From Parcubacteria bacterium C7867-006 (lineage in GTDB: Bacteria > Patescibacteriota > Minisyncoccia > Phycocordibacterales > DATDWN01): DNA of 64,000 nt. The DNA lies in NCBI GenBank assembly GCA_001189155.1, contig LFCP01000004.1, positions 68,782 to 132,781 on the forward strand, written 5' to 3'. Positions 23,780 through 62,342 of the stretch are shown here, in pieces; positions within the stretch are counted from its first letter, which is position 1, and every line of letters begins with the position of its first letter. Below the pieces are notes generated by a model. The model did no database searches. It was not told the DNA's origin and saw nothing but the letters and a program-made list of their open reading frames with translations. The translations under genes and the position numbers were made by a program.

Positions 23780-24126
23780 AATTTTTATAAATTTAATAAT
23801 TTTTATAACGCAAAAACCGGCCTAAAAAGACCGGTTATGCTATTAGCTCCCCACAGCCCAAGCGTCCAAATACAGACTGTGGTTCATCGCCTTCTTTAGT
23901 AACAACTAAACCCTAAATATCTAACTAAATCGTATTCTACACTAACTTAAAATATCGTCAATGGTTGAGCAAATTCACTAAATTTTATTAAAATTGATTA
24001 AAAAATTAAATTATTATTATAAAAATATCATTTTTTTTAATTTTTTTAAAAAATAATGAAAATTTAGAAATTATAAAACTTCACAACGATGTGAAGTTTT
24101 ATAAAACAAAAACTAGAAAACTTTTG

Positions 24127-50847: not shown

Positions 50848-50921
50848 TGGGAGATCGTCTAACGGTAGGACAGAGGCCTTTGAAGCCTTTAATTGGGGTT
50901 CGATTCCCTGTCTCCCAGCCA
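50848..50921 (+). tRNA. tRNA-Gln (anticodon UUG), CCA encoded
   Basis: cloverleaf folded by hand: acceptor U1-A72...7 bp, D-loop GG, AC loop cUUUGaa, T-loop TTCGATT, discriminator G, CCA. Confidence 0.85.
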
Positions 50922-51365: not shown

Positions 51366-53660
51366 ATGAATCATACTCAAACATATAAAATAAAAGGAAT
51401 GCATTGTGCATCATGTGCAAGCATCATTGAAAAAACTTTTAAAAAATCAGACGGTGTTCATTCGGTCGAAGTAAATTATGGAACTGAAACAGCTAAAATT
51501 GCTTTTGATGAATCAAAAACTAGTCCACATCATCTTTCTAAAAATATTGAAAAGTTGGGGTACTCCCTTGATATTCCTAGTGCTGAATCAATGGGCATGA
51601 GTGCTAATGAACACGCGGCTCATTTAGGCTTGAACCAATCAAAAAAAGAGAAATTGGCGGAAGTTGCAGACATGCGAACGAAAGTGCTTTCAGCTATTCC
51701 AATTGCTATTCTTGCTGCTTTTATTATGGGTTGGGATATATTTGCTGAATATAACATTGCTCCTGCAATGAGTTATACACTTAAGGAATTTTTCCATCAT
51801 CTCCTTCCAATACTTGCCACTTATATTTTGTTTGTAGTTGGCAAACCATACTTATTTGGTTTTTATAGATTTCTCCGATATGGCAAGGCAAACATGGACA
51901 CTCTTATTGGGATTGGTACCAGTACCGCTTTTTTATATAGTTTTGCTGTAACTGCATTCGAGGATGTTCTCCGCCCTTTTATTAATGTTGAATATCAATA
52001 CTATGATGTCACAATCGTGGTTATTACTTTTATCGCATTGGGTAAATATCTTGAAGCAAGATCAAAAATTAAAACTGGAGATGCTATTGAAAAACTTCTT
52101 AATCTTCAAGCAAAGACCGCACTCGTTATTCGTGATGGAAAAGAAGTTGAGATTTCAGTTAATGACGTTAAACATAATGATCTGATAATTGTTAAGCCTG
52201 GGGCAAAGATTCCAGTAGATGGTGTTGTAACCGAAGGTAGTTCTTTTATTGATGAATCCATGGTTACAGGAGAACCAATGCCAGTACAGAAAAAGGTTGG
52301 CGACAGTGTTGTGTCTGGAACGATTAACACCAATGGCTCATTCACTTTTAAGGCAACTAAAGTGGGGTCTGAAACATTACTTGCACAGATTATAAAGATG
52401 GTGGAGGAAGCTCAAGGAAGTCGTGCACCAATACAAGCTCTTGCAGACAAAATATCAGCAATTTTTGTACCAATTGTTCTGGTAATCGCTTTTCTCACTC
52501 TTGGAGCGTGGCTCATAGTCGGGTCTCAGTATTTAGGTTTCTCTCAAGCTCTTTCATTCGGGCTAGTTTCATTTGTTGGGATTCTCGTTATCGCATGTCC
52601 ATGCGCACTTGGTTTGGCTACACCGACTGCTATTATTGTTGGTGTCGGCAAAGGTGCCAAAGAAGGCATTCTTATTAAAGATGCGGCTACACTTGAAAAA
52701 CTCCATAAGGTAAACACAGTTGTAGTTGATAAGACAGGCACCATCACTATTGGTAAGCCAACTCTTGTCGATATTCAAAATAATTCAAATCTTAACGACG
52801 AAGAATTTATATCAATTCTCGCCTCACTTGAGAAAAAGTCAGAGCACCCAATTGCACACGCCATTGTAAACTACGCACAAGAAAAAAATATTCCAATATC
52901 AGAAGCTCTGGTATTTGAAGCAATACAAGGTAAAGGATTAAAAGGATCAATCAAAGGAACAGAATACTTCGTGGGTAATACAAAACTTGTAAGTGATCTT
53001 ATCCTTTCATTCGACAATATGAAATTGAATGAGTTTACATCACAAGGTAAAACTCCAGTTATTCTAGCAAGTAAAGAAAAAGTTCTCGGTTTTGTTATGG
53101 TCGCTGACGAGATAAAGCAAGAATCAAAGCAAGCTGTTTCTGATCTTCATGATTTAGGCGTCAAGGTTGTGATGCTTACAGGTGATGATGAAAAAGCTGC
53201 TAAATACATTGCATCACTTGTTGGTATTGATGAAGTTGTAGCCCATGTGTTGCCACAGGATAAACTTGAAAAGATAAAAGAACTTCAATCACATGGTCTA
53301 GTAGTTGCTATGGCAGGTGATGGTGTAAATGACGCCCCAGCACTCGCTCAAGCAGATGTTGGCATCGCTATGGGAACTGGAACAGATGTGGCAATAGAAT
53401 CAGCTGGCATTACACTTCTGGGCGGAGATATTTCAAAGCTGGTGAAAGCTATTAAGCTTTCTAAAATCACCATGAGAGGTATTAAGCAGAATCTTTTTTG
53501 GGCATTCATCTACAACATTGTTGGTATTCCTTTGGCCGCAGGAGCTTTGTACCCAGTTTTTGGGTGGCTATTAAATCCTGTATTTGCAGGATTTGCGATG
53601 GCAATGTCCTCAGTATCAGTAGTGTCAAATTCACTTCGTATTAAAGCGAAGAAATTATAA
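51366..53660 (+). CDS. copA: copper-translocating P1B-type ATPase
   Basis: [27 protein letters not shown]. Confidence 0.95.
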
Positions 53661-55609: not shown

Positions 55610-56008
55610 ATGCAAAAAAATACAATCATATCAATCATTATTAGCATCGCTTTGATTGGCGGAACGCTTTACTTTATTTCTGACAGGTCAACATCCTCGG
55701 TTGGTGAAGTCGCACAATCACAGAATGTTGAAATTAAGGATGGTGTGCAATATGTAACAATAACAGCAAAAGGAGGCTATTCTCCACGAATCACAGAAAT
55801 TAAAGGAGGACTGCCTACTAAATTGATTGTAAAAACAGATGGGACATATGATTGTTCAGCATCGCTCGTGGTTCGACCTGTTGGTTTCCAAAAAATATTG
55901 CAACCAACAGGTGAAGAGGTCATAGATTTAGGCACTCCAAAATCTGGAGACAAAGTGCAGGGTGTGTGTGGAATGGGAATGTACAATTTTCAGATAAAGG
56001 TAAGTTAA
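55610..56008 (+). CDS. membrane-anchored cupredoxin-like small protein
   Basis: TM anchor; C...C..M.M pattern (DCSAS...GVCGMGMYNF). Confidence 0.4.
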   Translation: MQKNTIISIIISIALIGGTLYFISDRSTSSVGEVAQSQNVEIKDGVQYVTITAKGGYSPRITEIKGGLPTKLIVKTDGTYDCSASLVVRPVGFQKILQPTGEEVIDLGTPKSGDKVQGVCGMGMYNFQIKVS

Positions 56009-57331
56009 TTAATCGAGTGTTATCTTTTTATTATTTAACAATATTTTACTATTCAAACAGCCTAATAATTCTCTTTTCTCTAAACCACTAGCTTCCTGTA
56101 AGACATACTTTGCATAATTTCGTATATCAATGTCATTAACCTCAATTTTTTCTTTTGACCCGATGATTATTCGTTGAAATTTTTTAACTCTTTCTACTTC
56201 AGTTTTAATTTTTTCTTTTATACCTAATTCATCTAGGTTAATTTTATTCATTAGTTGAACAAGTTGTTCAATCAAATCTTCTTCATTTATGTATCCTGAT
56301 TTACAGTGTTTATCTTTAAACTTAGTGCAACCGTAGTAAACGTAACGATGTACATTTCCATTTTTCTGCTTTTTAAATTTCTCATCTGCCGTAATACCAG
56401 ATCCGCATAAACCACATGTCATTAATTTTGTGAAGGCAAATTCTTTATCTTCTACTCGGATAATTTGTCCATTTATTTGAGCTTGAACCTGATCAAAAAG
56501 TTCTTTTGTAATTAGAGGTTCGTGTACACCCTTATACCAAAGACCACTTTTCTTAGGGAACTCAAAAGTGCCATAATAAAAATCGCTTTTTAGAATTAAA
56601 TAAATATTGCTTAAGGTTAATCCTTTGTTTCCGTTAGGGGTTTTAAAGTTAAGTTCAAATTTGAGCCAATGAAATATCTTTTTACCACTCCACTTTTCGT
56701 ATGCAACTTTCTCAAACATTTTTTTAATAACATGACCTCGGTCTGGATCAATATACACACAACCTTTTCTATCAACCCTCATTTCATTGAGGTATCCCAT
56801 GGGAGCGGGTGCTGGCCATAAACCCATCTCACATCTAGTTCTCAATCCACGCTTAACATTGATGCTTTTATTATCGTTCTCAAGTTTTGCTTGAGAACAC
56901 AAAATCATTAATAAGAACTTTTCGTTTGGTGAATTCTGGAATGACTGACCATAAGTTCTAATTTGATGTAGTTTCTTTTCATCCATCAGGTCTACCAATG
57001 TGCCGAGGTCACCAGCATTTCTGCTTAAACGATCTGGTGCCCATGTCAAAATACCAGTGTACCTTCCAGAATTTAGATCTCGAATAAGCTCATTAAACAC
57101 AGGTCTTTGACCTGATGCTTTTGCAGAGTGAGACTCACGCCTAATATCTACTACCTCAAGATTATCTCTTTCCGCAATCTGTAGCATCTCTTTTACTTGA
57201 GAGTCAATTGATAATGCCTGTTTCTCGTCAGATTCAGTTGATTTACGAGCATATAGGCAATATCTCACTTTATCTATAGGCACTACATCTGGAGCCCATA
57301 TTTGAGCCCCTCTGTTTATTACTGCTTCCAT
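56009..57331 (-). mobile_element. large serine recombinase (resolvase/integrase) gene
   Basis: N-terminal resolvase domain YARKSTESDEKQALSIDSQ, recombinase domain, C-terminal zinc ribbon CGLCGS...C. Confidence 0.85.
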
Positions 57332-57373
57332 ACCTATATTGATGACGCAATGGTTCTGGGAGTCAAGGAGAAA

Positions 57374-57949
57374 TTAAGTATCTTTGTCCACATCTGGATC
57401 CAGCATCTTTTTGGCTATTTCTTCCTTCTCAAAATCAATCTTCCATTCTTTGTAGGATGCATTGAATATGTCTATTAGATTTTGCTCATCGTTACAGAAT
57501 ATTTTAATAAAAGGTTCAAATATATGGTAAGCAATATCTTCCTCATAATTCTTTTCAAGATTGTGAATAATTGCAAACATACTTTCGAAATTGTTACCGT
57601 TCTCTAGAGGTTTCTTTACAATGTCGGTATCTCTGGTCAACAAGGAACTATAATGTATACCTTTTTCTTTTTGCATATACCTCGAATCATTATGAGATAA
57701 CCAAAAAGTCGCAGACTTATGTTCTCCTCGTTGGACTCCTTTTATAATTACAGTTTCAGCAGATCCGTTTATAGCTTCTCGTCCAACAAATAAAGCCATG
57801 ATGACTTTTTTATGAAAGGATTGGTGTCGCATAATCCATCTATAAAAAGTACTATGGTCTATTCCAACTTTATTGCAGACATATCGAATATTTGGAATTA
57901 TTTCTAATTCCTTAACAATTCTTTTGGTTATGTCATCTCCATACCTCAT
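57374..57949 (-). CDS. phage-like HTH protein (terminase-small-subunit-like N-terminus)
   Basis: N-terminal HTH; context next to recombinase. Confidence 0.3.
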   Translation of the reverse strand: MRYGDDITKRIVKELEIIPNIRYVCNKVGIDHSTFYRWIMRHQSFHKKVIMALFVGREAINGSAETVIIKGVQRGEHKSATFWLSHNDSRYMQKEKGIHYSSLLTRDTDIVKKPLENGNNFESMFAIIHNLEKNYEEDIAYHIFEPFIKIFCNDEQNLIDIFNASYKEWKIDFEKEEIAKKMLDPDVDKDT

Positions 57950-57951
57950 AG

Positions 57952-59223
57952 CTAATTTATCTTATGAGCCTTGTCACCGGTAAAGATTTCATACCTTTTA
58001 ATTATTAAATCTACAAAGACTGGGTCGATTTCAACCATAAAACACTTTCTTTTAAGTTGGTGAGATGCAATAAGTTCTCCGCCACTTCCACCGAAAAGAG
58101 AAAGGATATTGTCTCCGATTTTTGTACAGCGTTTAATTGGTTTGTCGTGAAGAGTGATTGGCTTTTCTGTTGGATGTTCGTAGAGGTTTCCAGATAATCT
58201 TCGTATTGCCCACACATCAAACATTTCCATATAGTTTTCAATCATCTCATTACCGGTACCAATATCTTTATTTAACACTTCATCATAATTTCTATGATGT
58301 GGAGAAAGATAGGGCTTTCCTTTTGTTCCATAAACACACGGTTCATACACTTTGGAAAATGCTATTTGAGGGGTTGGGTTAGCTATTCCTTTTAACCATA
58401 TACAGATTCTCTTAAAATCAATACCGATTTCTTTATAGATGGAAGCAATAAGTGGTGTATACGTTTGATCACAGTAATAGAAGAAGTGAGCATTGGTGTT
58501 TGTAACAGCAAAAGCGTTTTTAATTGTTTTCTTTAGAAACTCCTCGTAATCTTTATCATTTTTATTATCAGTACTTGAACCGCCATAGTTTTTAGTTCCT
58601 CCAATTCCATTTTTGTAGGATAGGTTAATGTTGTAAATTGGGTCACAATAAACCATATCAATTTTCTCCTGACCAACGACTTTTTCTACTGACTTAATGT
58701 CGGTAGAGTCACCACACAATAGTCTGTGTGGGCCAAGTTGATACAAATCACCAAGTTTACTTTTTGGTTTTTTTATTTTCTCTAACTCCTTTTCAGTAGA
58801 GAATCCATCCTCTTCCGTATCCAGATCAATAAATACTCCATCGAGTTCCTCGTCTGAAAAACCAATATCTTCAAGAAATTTTTCATCAAACTCACTTAAT
58901 AGCTCAATATCAAATTCACCTTGATTCTTATGTAAACGAATAGCAAGTTCCTTTTCCTTATCAATCTCTGAAATACTTGTGTACACAACTGGTACTTCTT
59001 TGATACCGAGTTCTTTTGCAACCCTTAAACGACCATGACCACCAATTAGAATGTTTTTCCTATTGGGTGCGCCATTTAGAATTAAAGGGTCAACAAAACC
59101 AAATCTTTTTACAGATTCAGATATTTGAGTGAGTTGTTCCTTCGAGAACTTTTTTGGATTGTACTCATTAGGTTTAATTTTACTCACAGGCACATAACAA
59201 ACAGACAACTTTTCATTGTTCAT
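57952..59223 (-). CDS. ParB-like nuclease domain fused to beta-class N6/N4 DNA methyltransferase
   Basis: ParB N-terminus; DPIYNIN (DPPY) then FGGSGGE SAM motif (motif IV before I). Confidence 0.75.
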   Translation of the reverse strand: MNNEKLSVCYVPVSKIKPNEYNPKKFSKEQLTQISESVKRFGFVDPLILNGAPNRKNILIGGHGRLRVAKELGIKEVPVVYTSISEIDKEKELAIRLHKNQGEFDIELLSEFDEKFLEDIGFSDEELDGVFIDLDTEEDGFSTEKELEKIKKPKSKLGDLYQLGPHRLLCGDSTDIKSVEKVVGQEKIDMVYCDPIYNINLSYKNGIGGTKNYGGSSTDNKNDKDYEEFLKKTIKNAFAVTNTNAHFFYYCDQTYTPLIASIYKEIGIDFKRICIWLKGIANPTPQIAFSKVYEPCVYGTKGKPYLSPHHRNYDEVLNKDIGTGNEMIENYMEMFDVWAIRRLSGNLYEHPTEKPITLHDKPIKRCTKIGDNILSLFGGSGGELIASHQLKRKCFMVEIDPVFVDLIIKRYEIFTGDKAHKIN

Positions 59224-59552
59224 AATATTTTATTGCTAACTAATAAGAGAGAAGGGCTTTTAAAGAAAAAGCCACTTCTTATAACTCTGCAGTAAACAAA
59301 GTTATCCGAATGAGTGACATTTTAGGTAGACTATCTAGGTTTGTATTCAAATTATAGAACGATAGGGGCCAAAAAGTCGATATGACTTATCCACAGATAT
59401 TTAATCATGTCAAGAGTGTAAAGAATGTAAATCGCTTCGCAGGGATTGAGTGATGTGATAGGGTGGAAAAATAGCACCCAAAAGTGCTATGATAAGAGCA
59501 CAATTTAATAAGTATAAGTAGCCTAAACCTAGTTTTCACTAGGCATGGTGAA

Positions 59553-59690
59553 AAGTCCTATCAAGCATAAAGAACCCATCATGGGGTCGCTTGATAGGCC
59601 ATATCGGGAAACCGGTATGAGAGACTTCGGTCTCTACCCGTGGTGGGCTTTTTGTGTATCTGCCACGGCATTAGCAAGTCCTATCAAGCA
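59553..59690 (+). promoter_or_regulatory. structured leader: 15-nt direct repeat AAGTCCTATCAAGCA (59553 and 59676) plus inverted partner GCTTGATAGG (59589) and hairpin GAGAGAC-ttcg-GTCTCT followed by T5
   Basis: seen directly; second repeat covers the RBS of the HNH gene; middle arm can pair with either flanking copy. Confidence 0.3.
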
Positions 59691-59693
59691 AAA

Positions 59694-60128
59694 ATGATAA
59701 ATTTTGAACATCCCGAAGATCGGGAGTATTTTGCTAATTTATTAGCAAATGGAGATGTAAAAAAATTAGACAGAGATTTTTCTGAGCTTTTTGATTTTGA
59801 ACATCTTGCAATGAAAAGATGGAGATTTAATAAGATTAGGAAAAAGATTTTAAAAGAACTTATTGAGAAATACGGCAATGAGTGTCAGTTAAAAATCCAT
59901 CCTGATTGTAGTAAGGTGCAAAAATTTGAACCTGATCACATTATTCCGCTAGCTTCAAATGAGTTAAATAAAAAATTAAGAAAAATGGCTCGTTTTTCCA
60001 GTGAGAAAGTTGAGCAACAGAGTTTCGGATCAAATAATATGAAAAACCTCACTTTGGCATGTAAAAGATGTAATGCTTTCAAAAAACATCGTATGTTTTT
60101 GTCAATAAATTTTGGTCTTCAAAAATGA
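59694..60128 (+). CDS. HNH endonuclease
   Basis: C..C...EPDHIIP...N...C..CN HNH fold motifs; start taken at ATG 59694 downstream of the repeat-bearing leader. Confidence 0.7.
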   Translation: MINFEHPEDREYFANLLANGDVKKLDRDFSELFDFEHLAMKRWRFNKIRKKILKELIEKYGNECQLKIHPDCSKVQKFEPDHIIPLASNELNKKLRKMARFSSEKVEQQSFGSNNMKNLTLACKRCNAFKKHRMFLSINFGLQK

Positions 60129-60147
60129 GCTAAAAAATGTTAAAATC

Positions 60148-61596
60148 ATGGCAATTATGTTTGAACAAGCTTTTAAGAATATAGATAAGATCCTCCGTAA
60201 CGATAATGCGGGTGGCGCGATGGATTATATAGAACAGACTTCCTGGATAATTTTTTTGAAGTATCTAGATGATCTAGAGACTGAACGTGAAAAGTCAGCG
60301 AAACTTTCTGGTAAAAAATACTCTTATATTCTTGATGGAGAATACAGATGGAGTTCTTGGGCATGCCCAATGAGCAAAGATAGAAAAATTGACTATAACA
60401 AAGCCCTTACAGGTGATGATCTCAATACTTTTGTTGACCAGAAACTCTTTCCGTATTTAAAGAAATTCAAATCAGAAAATTCAGATACTATTGAGTATAA
60501 AATTGGAGAGATTTTTAGTGAACTCAAAAATAAAATAAAAAGTGGATATGCTCTGCGTGACATTCTTAATATCGTGAATGGTCTACATTTCCAATCAAGC
60601 GAGGAAAAACATGAACTTTCTCACTTGTATGAGAGTAAAATTGCTGAAATGGGAAATGCTGGTCGTGACGGTGGACAATATTACACTCCTCGTCCACTTA
60701 TTCGAACTATTGTAAAAATGGTAAATCCAAAAATTGGAGAAACAATATACGATGGAGCATGCGGATCAGCAGGGTTTCTTATAGAAGCCTTTGACTATCT
60801 TACAGAAAACAAACAAAAACTTTCTCTCAAGGAGTACCAGACACTTCAGGAAAAAACTTTTTATGGAAAAGAAAAAATTACTTTGCCGTATATTATTGGT
60901 GTAATGAACATGATCTTGCATGGCATAGATGCTCCAAATATTATTCACACAAATACTCTCTCTGAGAATCTTACTGATATTCAAGAAAAAGATCGTTTTG
61001 ATGTCATTCTCGCCAACCCTCCCTTTGGAGGAGGTGAAAGAAAAGAGGTTCAACAAAACTTTCCGATAAAGAGTGGTGAAACTGCATATTTATTCTTGCA
61101 ACATTTTATAAAAAAACTTAAAGCAGGTGGTCGAGCTGGTATTGTAATTAAAAACACATTTCTTTCTAACGGCGATGCCTCAAATTTACGAAAAGAGTTT
61201 TTAAATAGTTGTGATGTTCACACAATTCTAGATTTACCATCTGGAGTATTCCAAGCTGGAGTAAAAACAGTAGTTTTATTTTTTGAGAAAGGTAAGACAA
61301 CAAAGAAAATATGGTATTACCAACTTAATCTTGGTCGAAATTTAGGTAAGGGCAATCCTTTAAGTGAGTTAGACCTGGCGGAATTTGTGAAATTACAGAA
61401 GACAAAAGCAGATAGCGAAAACTCATGGAGTATTAATGTCTCTGATATTGATAAAGAAAGTTTTGATTTATCTGTAAAAAATCCGAGTAAGAAAGATGGT
61501 GGTGTCTTGCGTGAACCAAAAGAAATTATTGATGAAATGCAAAAACTTGATACAGAAATTAAAAGTAGTGTGATGGGTATTCAAAAACTATTATGA
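60148..61596 (+). CDS. hsdM: Type I restriction-modification N6-adenine DNA methyltransferase subunit
   Basis: NPPFGG motif IV, HsdM N-terminal domain, GSAGFL motif I. Confidence 0.9.
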   Translation: MAIMFEQAFKNIDKILRNDNAGGAMDYIEQTSWIIFLKYLDDLETEREKSAKLSGKKYSYILDGEYRWSSWACPMSKDRKIDYNKALTGDDLNTFVDQKLFPYLKKFKSENSDTIEYKIGEIFSELKNKIKSGYALRDILNIVNGLHFQSSEEKHELSHLYESKIAEMGNAGRDGGQYYTPRPLIRTIVKMVNPKIGETIYDGACGSAGFLIEAFDYLTENKQKLSLKEYQTLQEKTFYGKEKITLPYIIGVMNMILHGIDAPNIIHTNTLSENLTDIQEKDRFDVILANPPFGGGERKEVQQNFPIKSGETAYLFLQHFIKKLKAGGRAGIVIKNTFLSNGDASNLRKEFLNSCDVHTILDLPSGVFQAGVKTVVLFFEKGKTTKKIWYYQLNLGRNLGKGNPLSELDLAEFVKLQKTKADSENSWSINVSDIDKESFDLSVKNPSKKDGGVLREPKEIIDEMQKLDTEIKSSVMGIQKLL

Positions 61597-62342
61597 AAAA
61601 ATTTGAGTATAATAAAGAAAATCTCAGATTAATTGCTTTTATTATCGCAAGTGCTTCATCAGGCACACTTTTTACAAAACTTTTACAAGATTCTGGTTGG
61701 AATGTTGTAAGTACAGCATCAGAAGAGTATAGAAAATCTGGTAAATCTAAAGAAGATTATCTTTTTGATCAATTTAATAAGATTGCCGAGGAGGGTAGGA
61801 TAGATGTACTAGAATTTATAATAGATAAGACTCTTTCAAAAAGTAGTGTTTATTTTAAAAAAGGTGATAAAGATTATAAATTTCCTAGAGATTCTTTTGG
61901 TGAACTAAAAAAGAAAGTTGGTAAAAAGGAGAAAAGTGATAAAAAGAAAAATAGCAAATTATTCGATGACAGAAAGTTACATGGATCGGTTGGTTTTGCC
62001 AGCAAAGACCTTTTCGTTTCAGAATTTTATTCACAGTCTATTTTTGAAGCATGTAAACTTTTGAATAAGAGAGTGCAAGAGCTGTCAAAATCTACAAAAG
62101 ATGGAAAGTCATTAATGCTAGATGTTTTTAGTGTAAATAATCCTATTTTAAAAATAAGTGATAATCAATCTCAGTCAGATAAAGATGAGCAAGAAGGATT
62201 TATGCACTTATTTGCAGGTGTTATGCACGGAATTCGGAATCCTAAAGGGCATGAGTTAATAAATCTAATAGATCCACTTAGAACACTAGAGTACCTCAGC
62301 TTTATTAGTCTTCTTTTTAGGAAACTAGATGAATTAAAGTAA
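61593..62342 (+). CDS. Ymh-family (TIGR02391-like) protein with HEPN-type Rx4H motif, inserted between hsdM and hsdS
   Basis: ATGA overlap with hsdM; C-terminal HGIRNPKGHE; positional hallmark between M and S subunits. Confidence 0.5.
   Translation: MKKFEYNKENLRLIAFIIASASSGTLFTKLLQDSGWNVVSTASEEYRKSGKSKEDYLFDQFNKIAEEGRIDVLEFIIDKTLSKSSVYFKKGDKDYKFPRDSFGELKKKVGKKEKSDKKKNSKLFDDRKLHGSVGFASKDLFVSEFYSQSIFEACKLLNKRVQELSKSTKDGKSLMLDVFSVNNPILKISDNQSQSDKDEQEGFMHLFAGVMHGIRNPKGHELINLIDPLRTLEYLSFISLLFRKLDELK

Follow-up and report, generated by a model that had tools for sequence, protein, structure and literature searches.

A LOOT RNA heads the accessory genes of a prophage-like integrative element in a Parcubacteria bacterium, and its variable stem recurs as a box at the next start codon

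The LOOT RNA motif (Rfam RF03000; Weinberg et al. 2017, NAR 45:10811) appears in the literature that we searched only as a metagenome-derived motif of unknown function, and no organism, genomic context or function was found tied to it there since 2017. Here we describe a LOOT RNA gene in a 64,000-nt stretch of DNA (the window) from Parcubacteria bacterium C7867-006 (GenBank contig LFCP01000004.1, positions 68,782 to 132,781), a member of the candidate phyla radiation (CPR). The gene stands upstream of genes for an HNH endonuclease and for restriction-modification, and a preliminary description had taken the structured region for a leader private to that HNH-hsdM operon, with attenuation-type or repressor control of restriction establishment.

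Several described systems share features with this locus. The c4 RNA is an antisense regulator of ant expression (PMC8201110). Both c4 (in the immI operon of phages P1/P7) and the CI RNA of satellite phage P4 are, like LOOT, small RNAs encoded upstream of their target on the same strand of a temperate element, and all three have brief, type-specific complementarity to the region where ribosomes bind the following gene. The c4 mechanism was reportedly detailed by Citron & Schuster in 1990. However, there is no sequence or structure homology between these RNAs and LOOT, and the complementary segment of c4 and CI lies in a loop, whereas that of LOOT lies in a closed helix. LOOT also has a second mirror segment downstream, which implies refolding in cis, and its targets are accessory cargo genes. 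Attenuators and riboswitch platforms resemble LOOT in that a structured 5' RNA with an intrinsic terminator has mutually exclusive helices, one strand of which has two partners. Unlike in these systems, no ligand or aptamer is known for LOOT, the competing partner comes after the terminator and would act on the start codon rather than on terminator formation, and the partner sequences are hypervariable and co-vary three ways in front of downstream genes that are mutually unrelated.

Integrons, like LOOT loci, have a conserved platform beside a gene for a recombinase. The genes that follow the platform are highly variable, lack promoters and are co-oriented, and homology breaks at the start of the open reading frame (ORF). 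LOOT elements differ from integrons in having a phage-type large serine integrase instead of the tyrosine integrase IntI, in lacking an attC-like 3' repeat, and in usually carrying one cargo unit in a phage-like backbone. C-protein systems, to which the preliminary description had drawn an analogy, have in common with the window the problem of controlling expression before a nuclease and restriction-modification operon, and this at one locus. The analogy is not supported: the operon encodes no helix-turn-helix (HTH) controller (Pfam gave only HNH, HsdM and Hypoth_Ymh, and the fourth ORF was read by eye), no C-box is present, and LOOT stands mostly before genes unrelated to restriction-modification.

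Rfam scanning gave one match here, a LOOT RNA on the plus strand (Table 1), scoring 88.2 bits (gathering score 46.4; E = 1e-16) over the full length of the model (positions 1-121 of 121). In an alignment of 92 sequences, 96.2% of the cells in helices P1 to P5 were paired and changes on both sides were seen in 30 of 34 pairs; the covariation score was 0.83, compared with 0.21 for shuffled and at most 0.13 for slid alignments. The window copy keeps all five helices, with compensatory changes relative to the 91 other members and no differences in the core. The long stem P3 is hypervariable and nearly pure Watson-Crick, with 7 G-U pairs in about 910 cells as against 13-15% G-U in P4 and P5, and its 3' strand is 98.6% paired in the same alignment. 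We read positions 59500-59655 as a LOOT RNA gene, carried by an integrative, prophage-like element. The structure is a known RNA, and not a private leader, the same start-codon box also occurring before unrelated genes. A hairpin of AGTTTTCAC with GTGAAAAGT, proposed earlier, is present as sequence, but it competes with P1 and P2, which covariation supports, and it is absent from relatives. Neither the Rfam model nor the literature searched describes a 5' leader, a pseudoknot terminator tail, a link to CPR serine integrases or a start-codon box, so that the placement of LOOT on CPR serine-integrase elements, the leader with the pseudoknot terminator and the three-way co-varying box appear to be new.

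Relatives were collected by scanning for the pattern CCTAAACC…GGCATGG…AAAA and confirming the candidates with our own covariance model. Three loci were found in IMG/VR, at least about 90 in GTDB species genomes and at least about 90 in metagenome contigs, and the family counts given below rest on at least 179 unique loci after removal of duplicates, among the matches listed. The GTDB hosts are almost all Patescibacteria/CPR (Saccharibacteria, Paceibacterota/Parcubacteria, Gottesmanbacteria, WWE3 and others). In some loci (L013, L025, L041, L074 and others), LOOT lies in metagenome-assembled genomes labelled Gammaproteobacteria, Sediminibacterium or Bacilli, sometimes at a contig end, and these are probably CPR or phage sequences assigned to the wrong bin, or cases where the assembly broke at the element. 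A blastn search for LOOT among 50,697 records of cultured phages gave no match.

The 15-mer AAGTCCTATCAAGCA occurs in the window in two exact copies, as had been noted before, 123 nt apart, and a third copy was not found in the 64 kb with up to two mismatches allowed. The chance expectation was 0.13 matches, and none of 100 shuffles reached two or more copies. The first copy contains the 5' arm of P3, and the 3' arm, GCTTGATAGG, is exactly complementary to the 10-nt core CCTATCAAGC that both copies contain, so that the proposed 10-bp helix can indeed form with either one. The computed duplex energy is -17.1 kcal/mol with the second copy and -16.7 kcal/mol with the first. The second copy, which we call the box, stops 3 nt 5' of the ATG of the HNH gene. 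It had been said to overlie the ribosome-binding site of this gene; it does cover the translation-initiation region, but no Shine-Dalgarno motif is visible before the ATG, and a recognisable ribosome-binding site is therefore not what it covers. A weak additional resemblance (GGCAT) is seen 5' of the box in the window. Two other origins of the repeat pair were rejected. A tRNA or tmRNA fragment, or an att duplication, does not fit, as ARAGORN finds only a tRNA-Gln at 50848 and no element lies between copies so close together. An island integrated into a chromosomal LOOT gene does not fit either, as what comes after the box is an ATG with its gene rather than the remaining 3' portion of LOOT, and the LOOT gene itself sits within the element beside the integrase.

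We then asked whether the P3 arm of each locus, taken as a 10-mer and with one mismatch allowed, recurs in that locus between +15 and +150 after LOOT. Such a box was present on the same strand in 25 of 155 loci, compared with 0 of 155 on the opposite strand in an equal window, 0 of 144 in an equal-sized upstream window, and 12 of 3100 (0.39%) when the arms of other loci were used (binomial p ~1e-32). The boxes lie 37-74 nt after the LOOT model, 23 of the 25 end 0-6 nt from an ATG, and this ATG mostly opens an ORF of 69-876 aa. Of the occurrences of exact 11-mers of the arm, 18 fell at +36 to +61 and only 4 in the rest of the 1.26 Mb, so that the box is the only recurrent partner of the arm; among these 11-mers, no second repeat was found at the far end of the cargo, beyond +61. 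Complementarity of the arm to the integrase mRNA, or elsewhere within 4-7 kb, was not above background. The duplex energies of the 3' arm with the downstream RNA were bimodal, reaching -16 kcal/mol or lower in 16 of 86 loci but in only 6 of 1032 pairings across loci. A covariation count would be circular here, because the positive loci were chosen by matching, and the helix of 3' arm and box was judged by these enrichment tests. In L086, L124 and L168 the box perfectly complements the 3' arm, whereas the 5' arm has a G-U pair or a mismatch; as read from these sequences, the box follows complementarity to the 3' arm, not identity with the 5' arm.

The 25 positive loci hold 18 distinct arm sequences, some of which are shared types on backbones that are otherwise diverged: CCTATCAAGC occurs four times and CCGCTACAGT five times. 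The three metagenome loci with the stem and box of the window (L135, L168, L131) have different first genes, encoding a DUF4177 protein, a 449-aa secreted protein and a 188-aa membrane protein, and the CCGCTACAGT group likewise combines one stem and box with different first genes. In L064 and L100 the homology begins at the integrase, spans LOOT and the box and stops at the ATG, and L042 and L124 have only LOOT and the box in common. Among the cargo of box-positive loci are four N6_N4 methyltransferases, an enzyme of the Eco57I/MmeI type, a protein that weakly matches the VRR-NUC nuclease domain (just under its cut-off in Pfam) and numerous membrane or secreted proteins.

The box could be a passive by-product, for example, a duplicated or truncated remnant of LOOT or a trace left when recombination brought in the cargo. 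It is missing from most LOOT loci, the GGCAT resemblance would fit a remnant, and tandem LOOT genes do occur: L225 has two on the minus strand (612-730 and 1403-1517, ~670 nt apart) that differ in P3, CCCACCATAG against CCCAATCACG, a downstream box being found for neither. Nevertheless, this explanation seems very unlikely to us, since 18 arm sequences are each matched by their own box from Saccharibacteria to Paceibacterota, the box is kept while the spacer and the gene diverge, its position relative to the ATG is fixed, and no other LOOT-derived sequence surrounds it.

The neighbourhood of LOOT was compared across the loci. The first downstream gene is co-oriented with LOOT in 74 of 84 loci, usually starting less than 100 nt away, and the first upstream gene is divergent in 60 of 83. 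The proteins encoded downstream are nearly all unrelated singletons. By tblastn, an integrase was found in 66 of 179 loci, and upstream of LOOT in 41 of the 98 loci for which the sequence extends 2.5 kb or more in that direction; 23 loci have it in divergent orientation, at a distance of just ~150-240 nt from LOOT. Large terminase, prim-pol and XRE genes also recur nearby. In the common layout a leftward integrase gene comes first, then LOOT and one or a few variable genes, all rightward, and after these the genes for the HTH protein resembling a small terminase subunit and for the ParB-methyltransferase, both leftward. From these recurrent integrase and phage-like neighbours and the variable cargo, we concluded that LOOT heads the accessory-gene unit of a prophage-like integrative element and is not a restriction-modification leader.

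Of the control of restriction establishment proposed earlier, the idea of an RNA switch survives in part, but LOOT is not tied specifically to restriction-modification. The narrower reading, in which an attenuator replaces a C protein and serves solely to time when the HNH and type I restriction-modification operon becomes established, has almost no chance of being right. The cargo of the window (HNH, hsdM and an apparent hsdS, with no controller protein encoded) would suit it, as would the 5 of 26 box-positive loci with methyltransferase or restriction-modification cargo. However, an identical LOOT and box stand before the DUF4177, secreted-protein and membrane-protein genes, the proteins downstream are nearly all singletons unrelated to one another, and LOOT travels with the integrase backbone, not with restriction-modification genes; this reading is largely refuted by the comparative data.

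Another possibility is that the 15 bp act as DNA, being bound or recombined (for example, by the serine integrase or the HTH protein) as an operator or a point of cargo exchange. Three copies of the site would then exist: one within the LOOT gene, an inverted one (the 3' arm) and one where the cargo is joined. This would agree with several observations: the identity continues past the helix into the linker, P3 is nearly free of G-U pairs, as expected if both DNA strands matter, the homology between related loci ends at the ATG with different genes after it, and the link to the serine integrase is strong. We regard a DNA-level site as distinctly unlikely all the same. In every case the copy shares the strand of LOOT (25 against 0), and it ends 0-6 nt from an ATG in 23 of the 25 loci, a placement that speaks for RNA and translation. 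The far end of the cargo lacks a second boundary copy, which an integron cassette would have. Unlike in att sites of serine integrases, the stem and the palindrome at its apex have different centres (internal loop 8 nt vs. 2 nt). LOOT is intact in integrated elements, so that P3 is not an att site in use, and in three loci the box tracks the 3' arm rather than the 5' arm. An integron-like cassette, for want of a second boundary repeat, and P3 as the attP of the integrase, for its intact state and non-concentric symmetry, were also rejected as candidates in their own right.

That P3 is hypervariable, near-pure Watson-Crick and copied together with its linker at a cargo junction beside a serine integrase suggests yet another reading, in which P3 is a programmable address: an RNA helix read against both strands of a DNA (or RNA) box, directing or licensing the capture, exchange or expression of cargo. 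We hold this to be highly improbable. LOOT differs from the bridge RNA of IS110-type elements in that its matching segment is helical and not in an internal loop, the integrase has serine recombinase domains, not DEDD/IS110 ones, and no match to the arms was found near the left junction of the element. If the reading were true, LOOT would be part of an RNA-addressed system linked to a serine recombinase in CPR prophages, and not merely a leader.

The ends of the LOOT RNA appear to lie outside the Rfam model. A TAnnnT box peaks 22-32 nt 5' of the Rfam start of LOOT in 175 loci, and the model is preceded by a conserved leader, ACAATTTAATAAGTATAAGT in the window, with the family consensus ACAAyTnAATA...AGT. 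The conserved -10 box and this leader suggest that transcription probably starts near 59500, the estimate being taken from the position of the -10 box, and the actual RNA is probably ~155 nt long rather than 116-121 nt. At the 3' end, the UUCG hairpin and the terminator-like element seen earlier correspond to P5 and to the terminator of LOOT, made of the tail ACCCGTGGTGGGC and a U-tract. Within the tail, GGTGGGCTTTTTG is invariant among close relatives, and a T run follows the tail in 167 of 173 loci (TTT within 40 nt). The apical region of P3, AUAAAGAACCCAUCAUGGGGUC, is complementary to the tail and the U-tract. The duplex of AUAAAGAACCCAUCAUGGGG with CCCGUGGUGGGCUUUUUGU has a computed energy of -25.7 kcal/mol in the window, and in 173 loci the median of this loop-tail duplex is -25.0 kcal/mol within loci compared with -13.1 kcal/mol across loci. 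In the window the pseudoknot (59567-59588 with 59636-59656) would have 11 + 7 bp, the A-tract AUAAAGA pairing with the U-tract, all outside the Rfam model. Given this complementarity in 173 loci, the terminator stem is, in our structural model, a long-range pseudoknot helix of the P3 apical loop with the 3' tail, and this helix may explain the many LOOT 'cross-covariations' that were reported previously (PMC7657543). A promoter-like site, a conserved -10 position and a U-tract terminator are all seen, and the co-oriented gene is so near that a leader role is as possible as that of a stand-alone small RNA, the type ('sRNA') under which Rfam lists LOOT.

Downstream of the terminator, a segment with the motif GCCACGG is complementary to the LOOT tail and could pair with it on a read-through RNA, the U-tract then lying in the hairpin loop. 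This duplex has a computed energy of -15.8 kcal/mol in the window. Pairing at -10 kcal/mol or lower was found in 22 of 23 box-positive loci, in 55% of box-negative loci and in 39% of pairings across loci. The partner of the tail comes first and the box second, an order that mirrors LOOT and allows its 3' half to nest with the downstream RNA in cis. All energies are nearest-neighbour values, and the folding program does not count the loop-tail pseudoknot. With this limit, the computed energy of the read-through RNA of the window is -78.6 kcal/mol when P3 forms and -75.2 kcal/mol when the 3' arm pairs with the box instead, and the median difference between the native and the alternative fold is +2.3 kcal/mol over 26 loci. 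When the 5' arm was blocked in the folding, the 3' arm paired with the box in 23 of 26 loci. The mutually exclusive helices proposed earlier are therefore borne out by the comparison of loci as well as by the folding.

LOOT might instead act in trans, as an antisense 'immunity' RNA of the c4/CI type. The terminated RNA, perhaps processed so that the 3' arm becomes free, would pair with the box at the 5' end of the cargo mRNA and block translation, its targets being the own element and incoming related elements, with the variable stem setting specificity classes. This possibility agrees with an RNA that lies upstream of its target on the same strand and is complementary to the start region, with stems and boxes that fall into discrete types shared between diverged backbones, and with a prophage-like element that has an integrase. 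We consider it rather unlikely, however, because the antisense segment is held inside a closed helix of 10 Watson-Crick pairs (98.6% paired) instead of being exposed in a loop, and P3 stayed closed when LOOT was cofolded with the start of the mRNA. The segment complementary to the tail, and the mirror order, would have no role. The targets are restriction-modification, membrane-protein and secreted-protein genes, not antirepressor or replication genes, and an Rfam scan of 58000-61000 at E <=1 gave only LOOT and no similarity to C4.

The reading that we favour, with roughly even chances of being correct, is that LOOT and the box form a bistable leader that gates translation of the first cargo gene. 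LOOT would be transcribed from its own promoter, fold and terminate, giving a short RNA, and some transcripts would read through the terminator into the cargo unit. On the read-through RNA, the 3' half of LOOT could keep its native fold and leave the start region free. In the swapped state, the 3' arm, P4, P5 and the tail would fold together with the two mirror segments to give a nested four-way junction, and the outer helix of this junction would bury the start region. A translational gate would thereby be added to the transcriptional gate of the terminator. The family membership, the repeats with their recurrence, co-variation and place at start codons, the near-equal computed energies and the genomic context are observations, whereas the transcription start, the read-through, the identity of the 'on' conformer and the trigger of the switch are inferred.

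Several points weigh against the bistable leader. The box is present in only ~16% of LOOT loci and absent from 84%, and is thus an accessory feature rather than what LOOT is mainly for. With the loop-tail pseudoknot contributing about -25 kcal/mol as a duplex, the native fold probably has an advantage of several kcal/mol, and it would form first during transcription; some trigger would have to open P3. The box also duplicates bases of the extra-helical linker, AAA(A/G)(T), and one further base in the window group, which pairing with the 3' arm alone does not need. An A/T-rich motif just 5' of the box could be a weak second promoter; a separate mRNA would then carry the box at its 5' end, and the cis model would not hold. 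TAnnnT boxes are rare 5' of the box across loci, the -35 spacing is wrong in the window, and a cargo promoter there was judged unlikely.

The coordinates of these features and of the neighbouring genes are given in Table 1.

Table 1. Features of the LOOT locus and its surroundings, in positions of the window
Feature	Position	Strand	Basis or remark
Element backbone	56009..59223	-	three genes left of LOOT; homologues recur next to LOOT
Large serine integrase	56009-57331	-	Resolvase, Recombinase and Zn_ribbon_recom domains
HTH protein resembling small terminase subunit	57374-57949	-	recurrent LOOT neighbour
ParB_N + N6_N4 DNA methyltransferase	57952-59223	-	recurrent LOOT neighbour
Predicted LOOT promoter	59464..59493	+	-35 TGGAAA (59464-59469), 18-nt spacer with TG, -10 TATGAT (59488-59493); consensus scan
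Conserved 5' leader	59501..59519	+	outside Rfam model
LOOT RNA (RF03000)	59520..59635	+	covariance-model score and covariation
P1	59521-23/59547-49	+	LOOT helix
P2	59528-33/59538-43	+	LOOT helix; linker GAAAAGT precedes P3
15-mer copy 1 ('O')	59553..59567	+	linker AAGT, P3 5' arm CCTATCAAGC and one extra A
P3	5' arm 59557-59566; 3' arm 59589-59598	+	long LOOT stem; the 10-bp helix noted earlier
P3 apical region	59567..59588	+	complementary to 3' tail and U-tract
P3 3' arm ('O-prime')	59589..59598	+	shared partner; can pair with copy 1 or copy 2
P4	59600-59619	+	hairpin, GAAA loop
P5	59620-59635	+	last LOOT hairpin, AGAGAC-TTCG-GTCTCT; UUCG loop
LOOT intrinsic terminator	59636..59653	+	3' tail and U-tract TTTTT (59649-59653)
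Segment complementary to LOOT tail	59660..59668	+	GCCACGG at 59662-59668; after the terminator
15-mer copy 2 ('O2' box)	59676..59690	+	core CCTATCAAGC at 59680-59689; recurrent, co-varying
First cargo gene, small HNH endonuclease	59694..60128	+	144 aa; HNH_5 27.5 bits (at cut-off), HNH 22.9 bits
HsdM	60151-61596	+	Pfam
Hypoth_Ymh protein	61593-62342	+	Pfam
Apparent HsdS specificity subunit	from 62344, runs off window (cargo to 64000)	+	read by eye from translation

The integrase of the window is ~25% identical to those of Listeria phages A118 and U153. Its stop, at 56009 on the minus strand, abuts a copper-resistance cluster of the host, where a plus-strand gene of 132 aa ends at 56008 (region 55610-57331); the cluster holds a CopA-like ATPase (51366-53660), identified by eye. 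This boundary is probably the left junction (attL or attR) of the element, whose right end lies beyond the window. The exact sequence of the HNH protein was found on one other contig (Logan), with the same gene order including LOOT, and no relatives of it were found in IMG/VR. Elsewhere in the window, a cyclic di-GMP-II riboswitch aptamer (RF01786) is matched over its full length at 23820-23903 on the minus strand, with 63.4 bits against a cut-off of 53.5, which is unexpected for a CPR bacterium.

Upstream of LOOT, the inverted repeats GGGTG-N10-CACCC and GTGCT-N8-AGCAC (59451-59491), described earlier as leader hairpins, are present as sequence, but they overlap the predicted -35 and -10 boxes and lie upstream of the likely transcription start; these two and the AGTTTTCAC/GTGAAAAGT pairing are thus three hairpins of the earlier list that do not belong to the conserved RNA. 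Equivalents are found in L135 and L131, and on the minus strand the GTGCT/AGCAC repeat followed by TTTT scores as terminator-like. These repeats could be the operator of a repressor, or a terminator that shields the divergent methyltransferase gene. A palindromic hairpin, GGCTTTTAAAGAAAAAGCC, at 59255-59273 in the 5' untranslated region of the ParB-methyltransferase gene also scores as terminator-like, on both strands.

With these results LOOT gains a home: it belongs to integrative, phage-like elements of CPR/Patescibacteria that encode large serine integrases, and there it heads variable accessory genes. The co-variation of the 5' arm, the 3' arm and the start-codon box, together with the mirrored partner of the tail, provides a first mechanistic handle on this RNA and predicts a specific alternative fold. 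If the bistable leader is true, LOOT would be a compact, re-addressable gate for newly acquired and possibly toxic genes, such as those for nucleases, restriction-modification enzymes and membrane proteins, and it would join the mere handful of regulatory RNAs so far known from CPR bacteria and the phages that infect them.

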